Origin: a virus | Lineage: Duplodnaviria > Caudoviricetes | Virus record (IMG/VR): IMGVR_UViG_3300020576_005257 | Span: 64,001-128,000 of that record | DNA length: 64,000 nt | Direction: 5' to 3' (one strand) | Shown here: positions 22 through 48,784 of the stretch, piece by piece | How positions within the stretch are numbered: position 1 is the stretch's first letter | Layout of the letters: every line of letters begins with the position of its first letter | The notes under the pieces: model-generated | Told to the model about the DNA's origin: nothing | What the model saw: the letters and a program-made list of their open reading frames with translations, nothing else | Database searches by the model: none | Made by a program: the position numbers and the translations under genes

Positions 22-390
22 ATGTTTGAAAATCTTAATATAGTATTAAATAGAAATCTGGAAGATCATCCTTATAATCCAAAAGGAAGACTACAAACTC
101 AAGAAGAAGCTGTAGCCAAAGACAAGGAAATTGAAGATATGTTAATTCATAAAAACATTCCTTCAGTCAAGATGGCACCTATGCCTATTCAAGATACTAT
201 TGAAAATATTACCCAACTAGCATTATATACCAAATATACTGAACCAGGTAAAAGTTATTATGGTATTTACTATGAACAAGCTGGACAGAAACTATTTACT
301 GATTTCACAAATGATAAAAACAATTTGGATTTCTTAATTGAATCAGCTCCCGAAGATTTTAAAATGAAGGTACAAGAGTGGCTAAAATAA
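22..390 (+). CDS. C-terminal part of a probable NadR/AAA_28-like P-loop protein (likely truncated by the window edge)
   Basis: Segment YNPKGRLQTQEEAVAKDKEIEDML resembles the C-terminus of phage AAA_28 proteins; P-loop not in window. Confidence 0.35.
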   Translation: MFENLNIVLNRNLEDHPYNPKGRLQTQEEAVAKDKEIEDMLIHKNIPSVKMAPMPIQDTIENITQLALYTKYTEPGKSYYGIYYEQAGQKLFTDFTNDKNNLDFLIESAPEDFKMKVQEWLK

Positions 391-677
391 AGAAAACTTA
401 TTGGGTATTTAGCCATGAGTGGGAAGGTGGTATGTGGGAAGTATCTGCTGTTTCTACTAATAAAGAAAAGATTGCTAAAATTATACATAATAGAATTCTT
501 GAAGAACTTCAAAGTACCTATTATGATTTTAGTACATCCCAGAAAAAGAAAATTAGAGATCAATTAAACTTAGGTGAAGTAGAAAAAGCTTTAGAATTAT
601 TTATTCAATTTCAATTTGACAATGAGGTTGATTTTGATAACCAATATATAATTAGATTTGAATCATTTACGGAATGA
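378..677 (+). CDS. hypothetical protein
   Basis: 99-aa ORF overlapping both neighbours. Confidence 0.6.
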   Translation: MAKIKKTYWVFSHEWEGGMWEVSAVSTNKEKIAKIIHNRILEELQSTYYDFSTSQKKKIRDQLNLGEVEKALELFIQFQFDNEVDFDNQYIIRFESFTE

Positions 678-928
678 AAACAATATACTTTCCAGTTTTT
701 AGGCCACCTTCAGTTTCAAAAACTAAGCCTGTATCTGTAAAAGAAAATAATGATAATTGGTTTGAGTATTATTTAAATGAACAAGCTTACTTAATCATGC
801 CCTATTTTGCCTTTGAGTTTGGTCTTGCTATAGTAGTTTCACAATATGATATTGATGAATACAGTCTTAACTCTTATTTTTCAAGAGTTTTTTATAATAC
901 TGATTATGATTATTTTGAGAAAACATAA
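674..928 (+). CDS. aromatic-rich microprotein, array member A
   Basis: WFEYY ... FYNTDYDYFE; ATGA and TAATG coupling to neighbours. Confidence 0.6.
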   Translation: MKTIYFPVFRPPSVSKTKPVSVKENNDNWFEYYLNEQAYLIMPYFAFEFGLAIVVSQYDIDEYSLNSYFSRVFYNTDYDYFEKT

Positions 929-1185
929 TGCGTATTCCTCACCTCACATCAACAAAGTTCACTGTACAAACTACTAATCTATTCTTAGTAGAATATCAAA
1001 AAAATTTTTTTCAGTATTATCTTAAAGATAATTTTTTTTTGGTGTCAGCTTATTTAGATATGATAGCTTATTATATTTCTTATAGTTATGAGATTTCAAC
1101 TACTAATCAACATTCCATGTTTATCAGATATAATAGAAAAGCTAGAAATACATATAACTCTAAATTCGAAGATTTTTCTTTATAA
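928..1185 (+). CDS. aromatic-rich microprotein, array member B
   Basis: FFQYY ... TYNSKFEDF; TAATG coupling at both ends. Confidence 0.6.
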   Translation: MRIPHLTSTKFTVQTTNLFLVEYQKNFFQYYLKDNFFLVSAYLDMIAYYISYSYEISTTNQHSMFIRYNRKARNTYNSKFEDFSL

Positions 1186-1406
1186 TGACTCTTACTTTTG
1201 TATCTTATCATAAATCTGTTAGTCCTGGGTATAAATATCAATACACTTTTCCACAAAAACTGTATACATTTGATAGCTATGATTTAAGTTTTTTTATTGA
1301 TTTAGAAGTTAGACACAAATTTGATCCCCTAATAATTAGTTCAATTGTATATAGACCTTTATTTGAAGAAATGAGTTCTAATGATTGTGGTGGTAAAGAT
1401 GTTTGA
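1185..1406 (+). CDS. aromatic-rich microprotein, array member C
   Basis: TFVSYH ... KYQYT ... VYRPLFEEM. Confidence 0.6.
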   Translation: MTLTFVSYHKSVSPGYKYQYTFPQKLYTFDSYDLSFFIDLEVRHKFDPLIISSIVYRPLFEEMSSNDCGGKDV

Positions 1407-1599
1407 GTTTACTAATTATTATGATAATGCTCCATTTGATGGGCATAGATTTCAATATAAACTCCCAACTATTGATTTTCCCTTTTTCTCTTATCATACT
1501 GACTCTAAAATATTCTTAAATTATGGAATAAAAGAGCATACCCGCATTACTTATAATATTCTTTTAGAATTTTTTGAGTATACAAAAGATGAATTATAG
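1399..1599 (+). CDS. aromatic-rich microprotein, array member D (start moved to ATG 1399)
   Basis: EFTNYY ... RFQYK ... TYNILLEFF; GGTGG upstream of ATG 1399. Confidence 0.6.
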   Translation: MFEFTNYYDNAPFDGHRFQYKLPTIDFPFFSYHTDSKIFLNYGIKEHTRITYNILLEFFEYTKDEL

Positions 1600-1720
1600 A
1601 ACTTATGTTAAAGTAGATAGAACACCTGCTACTACTCCACATTTTAGATATGCTTCTCCAAATGTTTTTAACTGGTATAACTCTGAACTAGAAATTTATA
1701 GGTTTGGATATTATATTTAA
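1589..1720 (+). CDS. 43-aa microprotein, array member E (not in ORF track)
   Basis: MNYRTYVKVDRTPATTPHFRYASPNVFNWYNSELEIYRFGYYI fills the gap exactly up to ATG 1721; C-terminus aligns with member G. Confidence 0.6.
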   Translation: MNYRTYVKVDRTPATTPHFRYASPNVFNWYNSELEIYRFGYYI

Positions 1721-1909
1721 ATGAAACTTAAGTTGTTCTTCGCTCATTTTGCTGTTTTTAACGATGGTCTTAGATTTAATTATTATTTTGAAGATAAGAG
1801 ATGTAAATTTGATTTATTTGTAGCAGATACACCGTGGATTCTTATAACAAGCCCACGAGAAACCAAATTTTCTTATGATTGGGAGTTTGAAGAATATCTT
1901 AACGATTAA
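1721..1909 (+). CDS. aromatic-rich microprotein, array member F
   Basis: RFNYY ... SYDWEFEEY. Confidence 0.6.
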   Translation: MKLKLFFAHFAVFNDGLRFNYYFEDKRCKFDLFVADTPWILITSPRETKFSYDWEFEEYLND

Positions 1910-1913
1910 AATA

Positions 1914-2090
1914 ATGAAGTTTCAAAAATATTATTCCCACTCTTCTCGACATTTAAGCTGTAGTTTCCAATATAACGAATTTGAAACTACAGATACTAGT
2001 CAAAGCATATGTCTTAGAAAAGGTTCACTTAAATGGAATTGGTATGACCCTAATCTTGAACTATATGAATATGCTCACTATATTGGTTAA
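1914..2090 (+). CDS. aromatic-rich microprotein, array member G (start moved to ATG 1914)
   Basis: KFQKYY ... SFQYN ... WYDPNLELY. Confidence 0.6.
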   Translation: MKFQKYYSHSSRHLSCSFQYNEFETTDTSQSICLRKGSLKWNWYDPNLELYEYAHYIG

Positions 2091-2180
2091 AAACCTTTAT
2101 CGGAAGATCAACTAAAATTTTCTTCTAAAAGAATGTTAACATACATTGGTGTGTTACATAGTTACACTTAGGTGTTGGTT

Positions 2181-2462
2181 ATGAATGTGCGTAAACTAGA
2201 TAAAACTCTACGAAACTTTAATGCTCGGAAGAACTCTTTTAATTCTACTGAGTTAATCTCAATTTTAAATTTACTTGATTTTGATATCAGGTATGATGGT
2301 GCTCACTTAGTAGCTCAAAGTGATAAATTAGCCAGAGCTAAAAATACATCTTTTCCAAATGGTACTATTACTTTTGGTTGCCATAGAACTAGTAAAGTTC
2401 TTTCACCAAGAGCATATGCTGATTTGAAGAAGGCTTTAAAAGACTTGAAAGTTATGGATTGA
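2181..2462 (+). CDS. HicA-like dsRBD-fold protein (putative mRNA interferase)
   Basis: Pattern ELISILNLLDF...DGAH...TITFGCH...LSPRAYADLKKAL matches the HicA layout (GSH-like His, second His, terminal helix); AGGTG before ATG 2181. Confidence 0.55.
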   Translation: MNVRKLDKTLRNFNARKNSFNSTELISILNLLDFDIRYDGAHLVAQSDKLARAKNTSFPNGTITFGCHRTSKVLSPRAYADLKKALKDLKVMD

Positions 2463-2471
2463 AGGATAGAT

Positions 2472-2690
2472 ATGACTCAACAAATTACATGGAAGACTAA
2501 AGGTGTTGTTCACTATAAAAAAACTGGTGAGTATTTGGTACCCACTGGCAGTGAGTTTTTTGGCTTAGAAAGCCATTTTTCTTTTATTCCAAGTAATAAC
2601 CGAAAAGTTGTTGAAATATATATTCCAGGTGCTAGTGTTACTTATTCTAGTTTTCTAGAAAAATTTGACTTAGATGTATTTGATGATTAG
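2472..2690 (+). CDS. microprotein, probable array member
   Basis: HFSF ... TYSSFLEKF; AAGGA ribosome-binding site. Confidence 0.55.
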   Translation: MTQQITWKTKGVVHYKKTGEYLVPTGSEFFGLESHFSFIPSNNRKVVEIYIPGASVTYSSFLEKFDLDVFDD

Positions 2691-2699
2691 GTAAGAATT

Positions 2700-3260
2700 A
2701 TGAGTTATATGTTTTCTGGTGCTATTGGTAATATTGACAAACAAAGAAAGAATTTCCTTCAGGTTGAGAAAGAGATAAGAGAATTATTTCTCCCTTTAGG
2801 ACATCTCTTCAAAATAAAAAATATTAAGGAAGTACATGCTCAGCTCCATACTGACTATAAAACAAAGTATGTTGAACGGCGTAGAATTCCTTTAAATGCA
2901 TCTATGTATCTAGGACCAGCTTTTGAAATAAACATAAATACTGGAGACTGGGATACTGCTATTTTTGCGGTAACGAGAGATGATTATTTAACTTATATTG
3001 AAACCATCCAAAAAAATAAAGATATAGTTGAGGAAATTAAAGAACTTATTCCAAAAGATAACTTAATCTACTTAGGTGCAAGTTATTGTGAGGTTCTTAA
3101 AAAATGTATTGAAGGAACAGTTCCCTGTCCTGTATCTAATCCTAGAAGTTTGAAAGCTTATATATATGGTAATCTTGTTCAAAAGTGCTATGATAGTGGA
3201 AATAGAAATAAAATTAATAGGGCAGTAACATTTTCTAAGGGCAGAAAAATAAGAATCTAA
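2700..3260 (+). CDS. hypothetical protein, paralogue of 4890..5594
   Basis: Shared YLGP / RDDYL / LIYL / CPVSxPRSL blocks. Confidence 0.7.
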   Translation: MSYMFSGAIGNIDKQRKNFLQVEKEIRELFLPLGHLFKIKNIKEVHAQLHTDYKTKYVERRRIPLNASMYLGPAFEININTGDWDTAIFAVTRDDYLTYIETIQKNKDIVEEIKELIPKDNLIYLGASYCEVLKKCIEGTVPCPVSNPRSLKAYIYGNLVQKCYDSGNRNKINRAVTFSKGRKIRI

Positions 3261-9991: not shown

Positions 9992-10670
9992 GACACCACC
10001 TATTAATTATCTTCTTGGTGGCAAACGCGGTGCTACCCCAGTAACTAAAAATAGTTTTCCTAAAGAATCACATACTTTCCTTACTGAGAGAGGATTATCA
10101 TTAGATCCTCTTAAACTAAAGGAATCTGATGTTGATATTTATGATATTGCTAGAGCCTTATCTCATCAATGCAGATTTGGTGGTAGGGTTAGACAAACTT
10201 ACACAGTAGCTACTCATTCATTGAATATGGTGAATTGGACTGATGATCCTAAAATTCAAATGCTAGCATTATTACATGATGCTACTGAGGCTTACATTAC
10301 TGATATTCCTAAGCCATATAAACACGCTCTTTATTTAAAGATTGATGACAAGTTACTTTCTTTTGAAGAGTATGAAGAACATTTACTCCAAACAATTTTG
10401 GCTGGTTTAGAATGTTCTCATATTTATACAGATTCTAACTGGAAAAAGGTTAGAGAGCTTGATCTTAGAGCACTAGAAATTGAATTTGAATTAGTAGCTG
10501 GTTTGTGGACTACTATTTCAAGCGAAAACGATGAGGAACCTCCAACTCCAATTAAATATGTTCATAGTCATCATGTAAGTGATTTTGTTTTTGTAACTGA
10601 TTCTCCTATAAATACAGCTAAACAGTTTGTTAGTACCTTTTTCAGCTTACACTCTTTAATAAATGAGTAA
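9984..10670 (+). CDS. HD-domain deoxynucleotidase (YfbR/YfdR-like)
   Basis: DIARALSHQCRFGG, YTVATHS, LLHDATEAYITDIP. Confidence 0.85.
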   Translation: MYKTPPINYLLGGKRGATPVTKNSFPKESHTFLTERGLSLDPLKLKESDVDIYDIARALSHQCRFGGRVRQTYTVATHSLNMVNWTDDPKIQMLALLHDATEAYITDIPKPYKHALYLKIDDKLLSFEEYEEHLLQTILAGLECSHIYTDSNWKKVRELDLRALEIEFELVAGLWTTISSENDEEPPTPIKYVHSHHVSDFVFVTDSPINTAKQFVSTFFSLHSLINE

Positions 10671-25557: not shown

Positions 25558-26397
25558 ATGGTAGAAGTTTATTTGATATTAAATACACTTAATGGAAATG
25601 TTTATATAGGTCAATCTGTAAATCTAAAAGTCAGATGGGGTCAACATCGTTATTCTTTAAGAAACAGTAAACATCATTGTCCTCATCTTCAAAGAGCCTG
25701 GTCGAAATATGGAGAAGAATCATTTGATTGGATAGTAGTAGAAAGTAACCTTTCTCAAGAGGAAGCTAACTTATACGAACAAGCTTATATTGAGTGGTAT
25801 GCTGGACTAGAATTAGCATATAATCCAACTTGGAGGCATAAAGGTAAAGGAAAAATGTCTGCTGAACAAATTTCTAGAATCTCAGAAAACCATAAGAGAT
25901 TAGGAATTAGGCCTCCTACTAGAAAAGGAATTTCACCTTCTCTAGAAGCTATTGAAAAGCAGAAACAGACATACCAAAAAAATGCTCCACCAAAGAAAAA
26001 ACATTATTGTTCTACTTGTGGAAATGAGAAATCTTTTTATTATCGAAAATACTGTGATAAGTGCTTAGATAAAGCAAGAAAAGATTATGCAAAAACTCGC
26101 ATCTGTTCTGAAGAACAAAGAAAAAAAATTAGTGAGTCCAAAAAGGGTATATTTCCTTCTCAAGAATCTAAGAAAAAAATCAGTGAATCTAGTAAAGGAA
26201 AAGTTCCTAAAAACCTAACTTCTCTTCATGAAGCGAGTAGAAGAACATTCACAGTTGTTGATCCTGAAGGAAATGTAATAACAGCTTCAGGTCTAACTAA
26301 ATTTGCTTTAGAACATAATTTACATAGAAGGATGTTTAGAGATCTTTTATCTGGTAAAATAAAAGTATACAAAGGTTGGACTTTACCACAAGAGTAA
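25558..26397 (+). mobile_element. free-standing GIY-YIG homing endonuclease with NUMOD3-like repeats
   Basis: VYLILNTLNGNVYIGQS, RWGQH, LQRAWSKYG; KKISESxKG repeats; CSTC/CDKC zinc finger. Confidence 0.9.
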
Positions 26398-44695: not shown

Positions 44696-44837
44696 TATAA
44701 AATTCTCCTACGGCTGGGTCAAACTCTGTAGCCCATGTTGGTGGTTCTGGGTTCTGTGCGGCGTAGGCTTGTTCAGGCCAGAAGCCATCAACCTCTCGCA
44801 TCTCACCACCCCAATCTTTGTAATACTTAATCTCCAC
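44688..44837 (-). CDS. 49-aa acidic protein (not in ORF track)
   Basis: GTG start after AGGTGG; VEIKYYKDWGGEMREVDGFWPEQ...GEFYND fills the gap. Confidence 0.5.
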   Translation of the reverse strand: MEIKYYKDWGGEMREVDGFWPEQAYAAQNPEPPTWATEFDPAVGEFYND

Positions 44838-45183
44838 TTTTTACCACCTGACAAAAGAAAGGGGGAACATAGAATCTTCCAGGAATAGCAAAGTTGATTT
44901 CGTTGTTATTCATCATTTCAATAAGAGTTGACTGTTGTTCATCATTGAAATGTTGGAAGTAGACTTTCCTATCATTAAGATAGCACTTGTAATTTTTATC
45001 AGTAGGTGTAACTTTATCACCTTCTTTTGCTCTCTTTAGAAATTCATCTGGATGTAGAGAACCACAAAAAGTACATTTGTTTTCCTTGTCCCACATATCA
45101 AGATTCTCAGTTCTTTCCCAAGGACCAAGTTCGTTTATTCTTCTAGGACAAGTCTGAAACTTTAGAGTATCAATATTAGTCAT
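44827..45183 (-). CDS. hypothetical Cys-containing phage protein
   Basis: CPRR...CTFCGSLHP...TDKNYK. Confidence 0.65.
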   Translation of the reverse strand: MTNIDTLKFQTCPRRINELGPWERTENLDMWDKENKCTFCGSLHPDEFLKRAKEGDKVTPTDKNYKCYLNDRKVYFQHFNDEQQSTLIEMMNNNEINFAIPGRFYVPPFFCQVVKSGD

Positions 45184-46196
45184 TAATTTTCCTCTTTAGG
45201 ATAGAAAGTATTGCTTCTTGTAAGCTTCTCACTATTAACGGCTTTGATCAAAGGATATGTTTCTGGTAACTGATAGTCTCGAATATTCTTGGAAGAGATG
45301 TCTTTCAACACATAATGACCTTCTTTGTAATCAGAATAGAACGGAGTGTAGTGTTTTATATCATCCTCAAGGAACGTTACGTGGGTGGCCTGGCTCCAAC
45401 GAGTGGAACCCTCTTCTGTAATCGCTGAACCACCATGCAGCAGATTAGCTGCCCAAATTAATGCTTCGCCCTTCTTAGCAAAAAAGTACTTATCTTCATA
45501 TCTTTTAGCTTTAATAAGCTGTCTTACAAAGTTTTCATATTCAGTATAATTATCCTTTTCACCTTTATATTCGGTGTGAGACATTTTAAGGTCTTGGAAT
45601 TCATAGATTGGTTCTTTATGAGAGCCAGGATAATACATTAAAGGTCCTTGATTGGGGCCAATATCCTCTAAGGCTGTCCAGAAACCACATACCCACCTAT
45701 GGGGCATAGAAGCAAAGTGACAATGGTCTGAGTGGGTAGGTTGTGCAGAACCAAGTTTGAAGTTGATAGTCTGGAAGGGAATTGCTCTTCGACCGTATAG
45801 AAACTCAATCACCTCCATTGCGATCTCATTTCTAGCTAACTCAAGAACATTCTTATTCCATTTCCAAGCTTCAAAGATTCGAGGACCATCATTATAATGG
45901 AAATGTCCTTCTTGAGTTTTAACTGCACCTTCCATGAGCTTTGTATCAAGCTCAGTAATAAGATCTTCTACAAATTTATCCTCTAAGTCAAGATTAATCT
46001 TAACAAAACCGTGTTTATAAAAGTGACGTGCTAACTCTTCAAACCACTCGGTCTTCCTTTGACCAACTTCTCCTTTAACTTGAGTCTTCCTAAATTCTTC
46101 TAGTTTGCCAGGAAGCAAACTATAAAAAAAAGGACTCTCGCAGAAAGGTATATTAGTAGCCTCAGGATCATTAAAATAGTTTTTAAGATTGTTCAT
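45183..46196 (-). CDS. phytanoyl-CoA-dioxygenase-family 2OG-Fe(II) oxygenase
   Basis: HSD, WTALED, GPLMYYPGSH, LLHGGS, TRWSQ. Confidence 0.9.
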   Translation of the reverse strand: MNNLKNYFNDPEATNIPFCESPFFYSLLPGKLEEFRKTQVKGEVGQRKTEWFEELARHFYKHGFVKINLDLEDKFVEDLITELDTKLMEGAVKTQEGHFHYNDGPRIFEAWKWNKNVLELARNEIAMEVIEFLYGRRAIPFQTINFKLGSAQPTHSDHCHFASMPHRWVCGFWTALEDIGPNQGPLMYYPGSHKEPIYEFQDLKMSHTEYKGEKDNYTEYENFVRQLIKAKRYEDKYFFAKKGEALIWAANLLHGGSAITEEGSTRWSQATHVTFLEDDIKHYTPFYSDYKEGHYVLKDISSKNIRDYQLPETYPLIKAVNSEKLTRSNTFYPKEEN

Positions 46197-46797
46197 TTTG
46201 TTTGTGTTCTCTCTTTTTTTGATGGGCTTTTACCATATTAGCGATATGTTCTGGAGATTTAGGTTTTCTCATTTTCTCTTTAGTTTCTTCAGATCTTTTC
46301 ACACCCAAAGGAGACGGAGGTTTACATCCTCTTTTTAAAGATAGTTCTCTTAGTTTTTCTTTAATTTCTGGAGTATGGGATATGCCTAATCTATACTTAT
46401 TGCCTTTTAATTTTTCAGAAATACGAGCCTTGGTTTCGGAACTGTGTTTTGCACCCCTGAAAGCATTATCAGTAAATTCACTATAATTAAACATTTCAAC
46501 TTCTTTGTTAAAAATATCGTAATAAAATTGTTCAGCTATAAGTAGATCTTCCAAAGACACCCTATCTACTATTACAAATTCAAATTGGTTCTCTCCATAT
46601 TTATTCCAAGCATTTTGTAAGTGTATATTTTTATGTTTGTTGTTTTTTAATTGGGAAATATGTTTATCTTTTCGAGCGGATAAGTTTATAGTCGATCCCA
46701 CATAAATTGCTGTAGTTATTTTATTAGTTATTATATAAATGATCCCAGGAACCGACATTGCTTCTGGGTCGTTCAAATAATCTTTAAGTTCGTTCAT
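46183..46797 (-). mobile_element. GIY-YIG homing endonuclease with NUMOD3, fused to a copy of the dioxygenase N-terminus
   Basis: IYIITNKITTAIYVGS, LQNAWNKYG, HSSETKARISE; first 17 aa match those of 45183..46196. Confidence 0.9.
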
Positions 46798-47534
46798 TAA
46801 ATACCTACCTTGTAGATGTGTCGTTCTGATTCATCGAATCTGCTTAAATGGGATGCTTGTGAGGCGTGAGTTTTATAGTTAGAACAGAAAGGAGAACATC
46901 CTTCCAAGTTAACTAATCTTAAACCATGTACTCCATAAACTATAGTGAAAGCTAATTCTGCGTTTTCAAAACTAGTGTAATCGGTTCCGTTATTATGTGG
47001 AAGATGTCCAGCATTATTTACTGATACTGTATCTAAATTAGTTTTACTGGAAAAACCACACCCGCCACCTGAATGCCATCCATTAGGTGTATTAACTATG
47101 GGGGCTAATGATACAAAGCCTATAGTAGGGTCTGATTCAAGAGTATTAACTGCATCTAGATAAATATTATCTTCTGTAATTATAACATCATCCTCTAAAA
47201 AACACCAATAATCATATTCATCTTTGTGCTGTTGGTAAGCATAGTCGTAAGCAGCAAAGGATCCTCCTGTATTAGGCCTTGTGTGGCACTTATAGGTGCC
47301 TCTGAATGATGGGGTGCCATCTAATGAGTCTAGGTAAACATTAGCCCCATGATAGCCAGCCTGATTGTTTACCAGAATCACATCACAATCAATTCCTGGA
47401 TCAATTTTCTTATCCCACTCTATGTGATGCTGAAAAAGCTCCAAGGAAGCTTCTGGAGTAGTGGGGTTATTGTTGAGAGTTCTCCTTGCCCCAAAATATA
47501 CAGCAATGACTTTACAGCATTTTTTCGTGTTCAT
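46797..47534 (-). CDS. putative GT-A-fold glycosyltransferase (start moved to ATG 47534)
   Basis: VILVNN, RPNTGGSFAAY, FLEDD. Confidence 0.6.
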   Translation of the reverse strand: MNTKKCCKVIAVYFGARRTLNNNPTTPEASLELFQHHIEWDKKIDPGIDCDVILVNNQAGYHGANVYLDSLDGTPSFRGTYKCHTRPNTGGSFAAYDYAYQQHKDEYDYWCFLEDDVIITEDNIYLDAVNTLESDPTIGFVSLAPIVNTPNGWHSGGGCGFSSKTNLDTVSVNNAGHLPHNNGTDYTSFENAELAFTIVYGVHGLRLVNLEGCSPFCSNYKTHASQASHLSRFDESERHIYKVGI

Positions 47535-48222
47535 AGCTAAGTTCAAATATGTTGTGAATAAAAATCGGTGTGGCTGAAAAATCACACACTCTTTTTAGTT
47601 TAAGTTCTGGGTGGAGTTTTATATAGTCGTCTAGTTGTTTTTGGGTGATCGTCACATATCCGTAGAAATCTTCATTTATATGTGGTTCAGGATAGCTTAA
47701 AGAGTATTCTTCGCTAATAAAACAAGAGAAAACTATTTTAGCTTTAGGTGATATTTTAAAGCACTCAATAAGCTTATCTAATGTTTTATATATATTTTCA
47801 ATTGTCAAATGAGTAAAAACACTAATAAGAGTAATACAGTCTAAAGGTTGTTTTAGAACATCTTCTAAATGGGATTCTATGTGTCCAAGTGTCACTCTAG
47901 GGTCGTTTAATAATCTTTGACCAATAGTTATTCTCTCAATACCATGAGCACTTAGAGGTTCTAAGCCATAATAAGTAAAATCGTTAAGACGAGCACTAAT
48001 AAAATTGGCTAATACCCCAGCACCACAACCATAATCTAAGATCTTGAAACCATTTTCAAAACTATTTACAGGCTCAAGGAAAGAGCACATACCAATAGAT
48101 GCATGGGGCTCATTAGAAATACCACCATATAATGAAACTATCTCTGGATGATTGTGATTGATAATTGGGTTATTTTGAGTTGTTACCCATTTGGTTTCCC
48201 ATATTTCATTACTGTTATACAT
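47512..48222 (-). CDS. class I SAM-dependent methyltransferase
   Basis: ILDYGCGAG, SVFTHL. Confidence 0.88.
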   Translation of the reverse strand: MYNSNEIWETKWVTTQNNPIINHNHPEIVSLYGGISNEPHASIGMCSFLEPVNSFENGFKILDYGCGAGVLANFISARLNDFTYYGLEPLSAHGIERITIGQRLLNDPRVTLGHIESHLEDVLKQPLDCITLISVFTHLTIENIYKTLDKLIECFKISPKAKIVFSCFISEEYSLSYPEPHINEDFYGYVTITQKQLDDYIKLHPELKLKRVCDFSATPIFIHNIFELSYEHEKML

Positions 48223-48784
48223 GTTTCAACCACTTCTCATCTTTTGATAATCTTTGAATTGCTTCTTGATTTCGATCCTTTAAGAAAGTCAATGGGTGTC
48301 CTACGTACACACTGTATGGATTAAGTAGATCTTTCTTCCAGACAACTGACTTCAAACCTATAGTTGTACCTTCTGGTAGGGTGACTCCTGGCATTACAAT
48401 TACATCCGAAGCTACACCCGAATATGAGTTTAGTTCTATATCTCCGTGGTAAACCTTATTATTTCCCCAATATTCGTTTACAGGCCCCTGTTCACCTGAG
48501 TAGTCTTCACTCCCACAAAAGAACTTAGAACCATATCCGATAAAGCACCAGTCCCCTAAAGTGATTGTGTGTTTACCTCCTCCTGATAAAACTACGTGGC
48601 TACATATCTGAATATTGTTGCCAGTTTTAAGCCCCGTAGTTATGAGGGAAAACGGATCTATACGAACCCTGTCACCTAGAAATACCTGAGAAGGATTGGT
48701 GAAGATGACGTTGTGGCCGATATATACATTTTCACCACAGCCACCTAATTTCTTTTTCCAGCTATCATCCCATCCTATGCTCAT
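48215..48784 (-). CDS. hexapeptide-repeat (LbH) sugar acyltransferase
   Basis: CGENVYIG, LGDRVRID, VMPGVTL, VYVGHP. Confidence 0.88.
   Translation of the reverse strand: MSIGWDDSWKKKLGGCGENVYIGHNVIFTNPSQVFLGDRVRIDPFSLITTGLKTGNNIQICSHVVLSGGGKHTITLGDWCFIGYGSKFFCGSEDYSGEQGPVNEYWGNNKVYHGDIELNSYSGVASDVIVMPGVTLPEGTTIGLKSVVWKKDLLNPYSVYVGHPLTFLKDRNQEAIQRLSKDEKWLKHV

Follow-up and report, generated by a model that had tools for sequence, protein, structure and literature searches.

How does an endonuclease gene come to begin with the first codons of the gene that follows it, when that following gene is itself complete? This question is raised by a locus in the window analysed here, a 64-kb stretch (64,000 nucleotides; positions 64,001 to 128,000) of the IMG/VR virus record IMGVR_UViG_3300020576_005257, a 235-kb phage genome of 234,927 bp. 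Coordinates are those of the window unless another sequence is named, and every gene in this stretch of the locus lies on the minus strand, the order of reading being a glycosyltransferase-like gene, an open reading frame (ORF) for a GIY-YIG/NUMOD3 endonuclease, and an ORF for a PhyH-family 2-oxoglutarate (2OG)/Fe(II) dioxygenase. On the usual view, a homing endonuclease can persist within a gene only when a self-splicing intron or an intein shields it. Phage homing endonucleases are otherwise intergenic, or they divide a gene into two parts that both work. The best explanation of the present arrangement, to which a probability of about 0.7 is assigned, is that a free-standing endonuclease gene of the I-TevI/Seg type lies within the 5' end of the dioxygenase gene, 13-17 codons into it.

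The start shared by nuclease and dioxygenase

The endonuclease starts MNELKDYLNDPEAMSVP and the dioxygenase starts MNNLKNYFNDPEATNIP, 11 of the 17 residues being identical, and in each of the five N-D-P-E-A codons the third base differs between the endonuclease-fused copy, here called the stub, and the dioxygenase copy. Both features had been pointed out in a preliminary description made from the letters of this DNA, and both hold on re-reading of the sequence, the synonymous differences exactly as quoted. The match is not due to chance: when all same-strand pairs of open, ATG-started 17-mers lying 60-3000 nucleotides (nt) apart in the whole 234,927-bp genome served as the null, the next best of the ~82,000 control pairs reached 8/17, and the stub and dioxygenase formed the sole pair above 8. 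One of the next-best pairs in this control, two ORF starts at genome coordinates G000:C1:232217 and 232878 (+), 660 nt apart, has 8 of 17 N-terminal residues in common and may mark tandem paralogues.

The stub reads as a genuine dioxygenase N-terminus and not as sequence of the nuclease lineage, because its first 17 residues fit the family motif. In distant dioxygenase homologues this motif takes the form K-[ND]-Y-[FL]-x-D-P-[ED]-A-M-x-x-P-W-x-E-S-P-F-F, with Pro17 invariant and Trp18 conserved in at least 90%, and the fit of the stub includes variants found elsewhere in the family (K-D-Y-L; S-V-P). The stub also lies outside the nuclease fold: the Pfam GIY-YIG match begins at residue 18, past the stub, the alignment to I-TevI begins only at residue 20, as do those to the two other GIY-YIG paralogues of the genome, and the AlphaFold model has its first strand at residue 18 and a low predicted local distance difference test (pLDDT) score for residues 1-10. 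Behind the stub, the endonuclease matches GIY-YIG (PF01541, 3.9e-08), NUMOD3 (PF07460, 4.7e-07, residues 115-149) and the I-TevI catalytic domain (1MK0/1LN0, 2e-08, residues 20-109), with helical repeats running to the C-terminus in the structure model. Its catalytic site is intact, and Y21, Y32, R42, H46, H55, E89 and N104, all I-TevI catalytic residues, are invariant in 42 homologues. With a GC content of 30.9% as against 35.9% for the genome, the endonuclease gene is slightly AT-richer, a difference that is not decisive.

The first ATG of the endonuclease stands in a setting suited to initiation. The TAA of the glycosyltransferase-like gene shares base 46797, its last A, with this ATG, so the TAATG coupling to the upstream gene that had been described is indeed there, and a Shine-Dalgarno (SD)-like AGGT lies in the last codons of that gene, five bases 5' of the ATG. 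A second candidate start exists within the stub. Its codon 14 is ATG, the conserved Met of D-P-E-A-M, at the usual start position for a GIY-YIG gene; the GIY motif stands 3-8 residues from the protein start in 63 of the 105 homologues with a detectable motif, and Met1 of I-TevI aligns with about residues 15-16 of the endonuclease. A Pro-Gly pair precedes the GIY motif in some homologues and may belong to the endonuclease. The join between dioxygenase codons and nuclease may thus lie anywhere from codon 13/14 to codon 17/18, and a join at the shared ATG would explain the in-frame fusion. The preliminary description had placed an in-frame insertion about 17 codons into the dioxygenase, of which the insertion stands and the exact codon does not, codon 13/14 being possible and Met14 a normal GIY-YIG start.

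Met14 is also central to a rival account, in which the nuclease is an ordinary free-standing endonuclease with an accidental scar. The donor gene would have lain between the upstream gene and the dioxygenase, the left junction would have formed by microhomology (the shared ATG of Met14, or CCT-GG) within the 5' end of the recipient gene, and the protein would be made from its own codon-14 ATG, the 13-codon leader having no role. Such a start would put the GIY motif at position 5, the typical family offset, yet no SD-like sequence lies 5' of Met14, whereas the first ATG has a well-spaced AGGT and the TAATG coupling; as no stop lies between ATG1 and Met14, ribosomes initiating at ATG1 must make the fusion. 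The duplicated segment does start exactly at the ATG, as if the donor endonuclease had abutted the donor dioxygenase, T4 seg and mob genes are mostly intergenic (PMC2988022), and the insertion is known in one lineage only; the fused layout nonetheless recurs at a second locus, described below. Homing would copy the layout whatever its origin, and the account departs from the preferred reading only in whether the capture is functional. An accidental scar is considered unlikely.

Occupied and empty alleles

Close relatives of the dioxygenase turned up in protein searches at three loci, L005, L006 and L004, which between them present the site in its occupied and empty states. L005, a contig from a Joint Genome Institute (JGI) metagenome with a dioxygenase protein 97% identical to that of the window, has the same three genes with the endonuclease, both copies and the overlaps. 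The two sequences differ at 184 positions over ~5 kb; L005 is a distinct genome, and because the layout is found there as well it is not an assembly artefact, a possibility that the preliminary description had already held unlikely. L006 (dioxygenase 81% identical) and L004 (72%) are without the endonuclease; in L006 the upstream stop abuts the dioxygenase ATG directly, and in L004 a single base separates them. Because the upstream stop stands next to the dioxygenase ATG in the relatives without it, the endonuclease was inserted, and the copy fused to it now holds the ancestral start position. The same upstream gene end, AGGT included, is present in the orthologues at L004, L005 and L006, and the earlier claim that the element took over the gene's start signal is upheld in its positional part, the fused copy standing at the ancestral start behind the same AGGT as in the empty alleles.

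The endonuclease is thus a presence/absence polymorphism at one fixed site: the window and L005 carry it, and L006 and L004 have a clean junction in its place. The heterologous insert amounts to ~600 nt (46146-46746) and is made up of the endonuclease body and the new 5' end, while its two flanks, stub and gene body, are both homologous to the unoccupied allele. There is good support for an insertion 13-17 codons into the gene that left the old start stranded and brought a replacement. Wider searches added no further carriers: no GIY-YIG gene was found within 2.5 kb of the dioxygenase family at 21 further viral loci, the protein search gave no relative of the endonuclease above 43% identity other than the L005 copy and hence no second host context for this gene, the cultured-phage collection held no match to the locus or the dioxygenase by megablast or tblastn, and a scan of metagenome contigs for closer dioxygenase relatives gave no confirmed match. 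Among cultured phages there is no close relative of this one, whose RecA-like protein shares at most 32% identity with any of theirs.

The empty alleles also bear on which copy is the resident one. The stub and both empty alleles have the same 11-nt core, GAC CCA GAA GC, followed by ATG in L006; the downstream copy is without this core and reads GAT CCT GAG GCT ACT at its position. Over the D-P-E-A-M core, the stub matches L006 at 14 of 15 nt and the downstream copy at 9 of 15. The downstream copy furthermore has Thr for Met14 (M14T) and Phe for Trp18 (W18F), as well as a TCA-to-AGT serine switch just past the junction, and codons 11-30 are the least similar stretch between the window gene and that of L006 (60%, as against 75% for the whole gene).

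The two copies differ at 33% of nucleotides, a divergence as large as that between this phage and L004. It speaks against a tandem duplication of the resident 5' end in situ at the time of insertion, followed by long independent drift with nothing imported, a route that Beaudet et al. deemed possible in the case of some fungal hybrids (PMC3630166). In its favour, the copies agree at 17 of 21 nt over their first seven codons, but on this account the insertion would predate the splits from the empty alleles and need two precise losses, while the endonuclease is intact and 99.6% identical in its sole two carriers. In-situ duplication is held to be very improbable.

Comparison of the two occupied alleles shows how the locus has changed since their separation. 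The endonuclease ORF differs by four substitutions in 615 nt, and the new 5' end is 100% identical. Two of the four substitutions fall within the 51-nt stub, both toward the downstream copy (Fisher p = 0.04), which hints that the stub may be less constrained or occasionally converted. Divergence is ~0.7% from 47900 down to 46108, a stretch that takes in the endonuclease with the upstream gene before it and the first 30 codons of the dioxygenase after it, and ~7% from 46107 onward, the switch lying ~40 nt past the duplicated segment. Such a breakpoint would fit nuclease-initiated exchange with co-conversion and is suggestive only; it agrees with the placement of nuclease genes at boundaries of exchange between phages (PMC10448857).

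Proposed mechanism and second case

According to the preferred reading, the old start region (the SD-like site, the TAATG and the first 13-17 codons) has been kept in place and now reads into the endonuclease. Lying between two homologous stretches, the insert has the geometry of a mobile intron, and splicing would be needless because translation restarts after it. During mixed infection, the enzyme would cut endonuclease-free alleles near codons 10-20, and repair would copy the insert from the occupied genome with the stub and the gene body as homology arms, by which the layout would be regenerated. The resident gene would escape cutting because its upstream half-site runs into endonuclease sequence; the sole contiguous copy, moreover, differs at ~14 of 36 positions around the junction, which would add to resident immunity. 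I-TevI-style CNNNG motifs near the junction were considered as a clue to the cleavage site and set aside as uninformative, being found in both empty and resident sequences.

Translation of both genes would follow from the same arrangement. The endonuclease would use the inherited initiation region, that is, the AGGT kept in the empty alleles and the TAATG, and the host gene would stay functional through its full-length start 3' of the endonuclease. Coupling of the dioxygenase to the endonuclease stop by termination-reinitiation is likely, because its ATG sits 11 nt 5' of that stop, out of frame with the endonuclease ORF, and the A-rich leader before it offers no more than a weak and distant GAGAG. 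A promoter and terminator scan gave matches at the level of shuffled controls. From the sequence we infer where the enzyme cuts, that the resident is immune, that homing takes place, that translation begins at the captured start and that the two genes are coupled.

Re-initiation has to be set against removal of the insert as a group I intron, or as another spliced or bypassed element, such that the mature dioxygenase would start from the stub. The stub joined to codon 18 onward would indeed give a sensible dioxygenase N-terminus, and in mitochondria an intron ORF often continues the reading frame of the exon before it. The 601 nt from stub to codon 18, however, consist entirely of endonuclease ORF and duplicated start, with no space left over for a ribozyme, and a second complete start would be unnecessary. 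No Rfam intron or other plausible RNA family was found in 44800-47800 at E up to 10, nor any significant RNA structure at either junction; folds compared with shuffled sequence gave no stable structure at either start region (z-scores -0.2 and +0.7). A spliced or bypassed element is barely credible. An intein was likewise rejected, as there is no Hint domain (Pfam: GIY-YIG and NUMOD3 only) and the ORF has its own stop and is out of frame with the dioxygenase, and so was a split into complementary gene pieces of the mobE/nrdA type, the downstream gene being full length and repeating the 17 codons. The description of the locus as an intron-less, intein-less invasion of a coding sequence is borne out by the lack of an Rfam intron family and a Hint domain.

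A second locus has the same layout. In a survey of the contexts of homologous endonucleases with long N-terminal extensions, in which six groups were examined, L035:441-2245 (Logan SRR23683173_129861) was found to encode a GIY-YIG endonuclease, P0131, that is 35% identical to the window endonuclease and whose first ~28-30 residues agree with the N-terminus of the AAA_24 ATPase encoded just downstream in 14 of 30 positions. This stub matches the AAA_24 family consensus up to the middle of the Walker A motif and is preceded by a strong SD sequence, AGGAGG; the ATPase gene, itself complete, begins anew at an ATGA in which its ATG overlaps the stop of the endonuclease. Because the layout is found here with an AAA_24 ATPase gene, it is not a one-off, and L035 is an independent second case. 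A scan of viral contigs for relatives of the L035 ATPase found none. A weak resemblance of the P0123-type extension to the window stub (6/18) was put down to chance.

The targets so far, a dioxygenase in the window and an AAA_24 ATPase in L035, are unrelated to each other. A general phage class of 'start-capture' cassettes may be proposed tentatively, at somewhat less than even odds: each would consist of an endonuclease and a replacement 5' end, with re-initiation instead of splicing, a start-borrowed fusion, a stop-coupled host gene (so that loss of either gene would be difficult), immunity residing in the replacement end, and repeated origin with unrelated targets.

Several findings weigh against the preferred reading or its extension. 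The duplication was absent in five of the six groups of N-terminally extended homologues (P0122/P0123/P0125, P0132, P0154, P0170, P0165). The insertion itself is confined to a single lineage of two close genomes, repeated homing of the cassette is no more than a hypothesis, and translation starting at Met14 could make the 'captured start' incidental. The low-divergence tract between window and L005 extends >1 kb upstream, and the breakpoint is not uniquely tied to the endonuclease. Of the identical codons of the two copies that are able to differ, 5 of 10 do so, equal to the 47-53% between ordinary alleles of the dioxygenase; the run of five changed codons is mildly unusual at ~0.03 under saturated local codon usage, and their clustering stands at 0.024, both values being post hoc. 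Since this silent divergence equals that between ordinary alleles, the two copies look like naturally diverged alleles of one N-terminus. The earlier term 'synonymous-recoded' is not demonstrated, and deliberate recoding and cleavage resistance would be plausible as hypotheses.

Lastly, over the whole 51 nt a hand count gave 36 matches of L006 to the stub and 38 to the downstream copy, and residues 3, 6, 15 and 16 of L006 are nearer the downstream copy. The closest empty allele available for this comparison, L006, is just 81% identical. The preliminary description had proposed asking which 51-nt copy the endonuclease-free alleles resemble, and the answer is divided, the core favouring the stub and the full length showing no preference. 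The marginal excess over 51 nt fits a reversed polarity, in which the downstream copy and gene body would be the untouched resident. The mobile unit would then comprise the stub and the endonuclease, would be a piece of a dioxygenase gene disrupted in a donor, and would have landed precisely where the upstream gene meets the resident ATG. In the downstream copy, the N residues at 3, 6 and 15 are those of L006 and residue 16 differs conservatively (I vs L), but in the D-P-E-A-M core, at Met14 and at Trp18 the empty alleles agree with the stub or the family and not with the downstream copy. Under this polarity, the right junction would also have had to form without homology and to fall exactly 14 nt over the resident start. 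The stub adjoins the upstream gene in just the way that the start does in the empty alleles, and the downstream copy lies, together with the endonuclease, inside a tract in which it is 100% identical between window and L005. Reversed polarity is regarded as decidedly improbable.

Related systems and gene coordinates

The closest parallels to a captured gene end come from outside phages. In the mobile endonuclease ORFs (mORFs) of fungal mitochondria, known from atp6 of Allomyces macrogynus and from atp6, atp9, cox2 and nad3 of Glomus, a foreign C-terminus is inserted into a gene and the native one stranded (PMC3630166). As at the present locus, the endonuclease ORF has no intron around it although it is set within a protein-coding gene, with which it can be in phase; one gene end is duplicated, with a diverged copy in use and its counterpart stranded. 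Identity between inserted and native copies is 64-81% in fungi and 67% here. In mORFs, however, the 3' end is replaced and the stranded copy lies downstream, often untranslated, whereas the window cassette replaces the 5' end, its stranded copy would provide the translation start of the endonuclease, and the host is a double-stranded DNA phage and not an organelle. The preliminary comparison of the locus to a 5' mirror image of the fungal 3'-end-replacing endonucleases is apt in the light of that work (PMC3630166).

The WHO elements of Torulaspora and Lachancea, relatives of HO, replace the 3' end of FBA1 without splicing (PMC7282813). They resemble the window cassette in homing without protein or RNA splicing and in replacing one end of the host gene, in their case at each integration through an allele-specific cut in FBA1. 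They differ in being intein-derived zinc-finger endonucleases of a nuclear genome that act on the 3' end, are not fused to the host gene and leave old gene ends behind in clusters. That they cleave, and do so in an allele-specific way, has been shown experimentally, whereas cleavage by the window enzyme is a prediction.

Among phages, the 'intronless homing' of the T-even seg and mob genes shares with the window cassette the GIY-YIG catalytic domain of I-TevI type, the phage setting and the patchy presence, and further points of likeness may be seen in the co-conversion of flanking markers and the resistance through polymorphisms in the resident target (PMC2988022). The seg and mob genes differ in being intergenic and cutting at a distance in a neighbouring gene, and none has been described with a captured gene start or a duplicate end (PMC2988022). 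Gene-splitting insertions, namely mobE in Aeh1 nrdA, mobA with the T4 gene 60 bypass cassette, and seg43 in phage 25 (PMC2988022; bioRxiv 10.1101/2022.08.31.505936), are also intron-less, intein-less invasions of phage coding sequences in which downstream coding restarts after the endonuclease, and the mobA cassette carries part of its host gene, as does the window cassette. In these cases both complementary pieces are needed, whereas here the short piece is redundant and the downstream gene complete. The GIY-YIG enzymes of group I introns (I-TevI, I-BmoI) have a similar catalytic domain and NUMOD3-type modules and lie in an insert between two target halves; unlike those introns, the present insert has no ribozyme, and the host gene would be rescued by re-initiation on a duplicated start instead of splicing.

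A full-text literature search, incomplete in its coverage, found no published phage case of a captured, duplicated 5' end. The kind of layout is already known from fungal mitochondria and yeast, and its novelty here would lie in the phage host and the 5' end. The locus represents a third route in a phage, by which an endonuclease takes a gene's start and supplies a spare, and extends a lifestyle of fungal mitochondria and yeast to bacterial viruses and to the 5' ends of genes. If general, this route would account for gene starts that have been called wrongly and for the short 'orphan' extensions at the N-termini of phage endonucleases, and would identify hotspots of exchange between co-infecting phages; the duplicated segment, which brackets the site, would mark the likely targets of uncharacterised nucleases and aid the mining of site-specific enzymes.

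Table 1. Features of the locus in window coordinates
Feature	Coordinates	Strand	Basis or remarks
Glycosyltransferase-like gene	46797..47585	(-)	Weak Pfam Glyco_tranf_2_5 match
GIY-YIG/NUMOD3 endonuclease ORF	46183..46797	(-)	204 residues; Pfam
Stub: 17 dioxygenase-type N-terminal codons fused in frame to the endonuclease	46747..46797	(-)	11/17 identity, family motif
Endonuclease body	46183..46746	(-)	Catalytic domain ~residues 18-110; NUMOD3-type DNA-binding repeats from ~residue 115
Overlap of endonuclease 3' end and stop with new dioxygenase start	46183..46196	(-)	14 nt
Replacement 5' end: 17 codons of the dioxygenase ORF	46146..46196	(-)	Diverged from stub and empty alleles around the junction
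PhyH-family 2OG/Fe(II) dioxygenase ORF	45183..46196	(-)	337 residues
Dioxygenase body	45183..46145	(-)	Pfam PhyH 8.8e-17; intact, every invariant family residue kept
Similarity breakpoint, window vs L005	46105..46107	.	Divergence ~0.7% to ~7%

The invariant columns of the dioxygenase, for which 530 homologues were found, include H155, D157, H254 and R266. Its C-terminal tail (window 45183-45260) is ~25 residues longer in the window and L005 proteins, at 337 residues, than in most homologues (283-312 residues).

Upstream of the three genes, a methyltransferase gene (47512-48222) is absent from L006 and L004, and the region around its 5' end (47950-48300) is hypervariable between window and L005, with 40 substitutions in 48101-48200 and flanks almost identical. 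In L004 (2722-4002) a hexapeptide acyltransferase and a glycosyltransferase-like protein are fused in one ORF of 426 residues; the two are separate in the window, with the methyltransferase between them.

At the two other GIY-YIG genes of the genome no duplicated N-terminus of a neighbour was found. Both are intact, at window 25558-26397 (+) and at G000:C1:146907-147545 (-); one lies just 5' of a RecA/UvsX-like gene, and the other within a run of similar genes of 231-246 residues, of which the two 5' ones are clear paralogues. Elsewhere in G000:C1, ARAGORN places a transfer RNA (tRNA) for Ile at 700-791, and tRNA-Leu and tRNA-Lys at 10210-10428.

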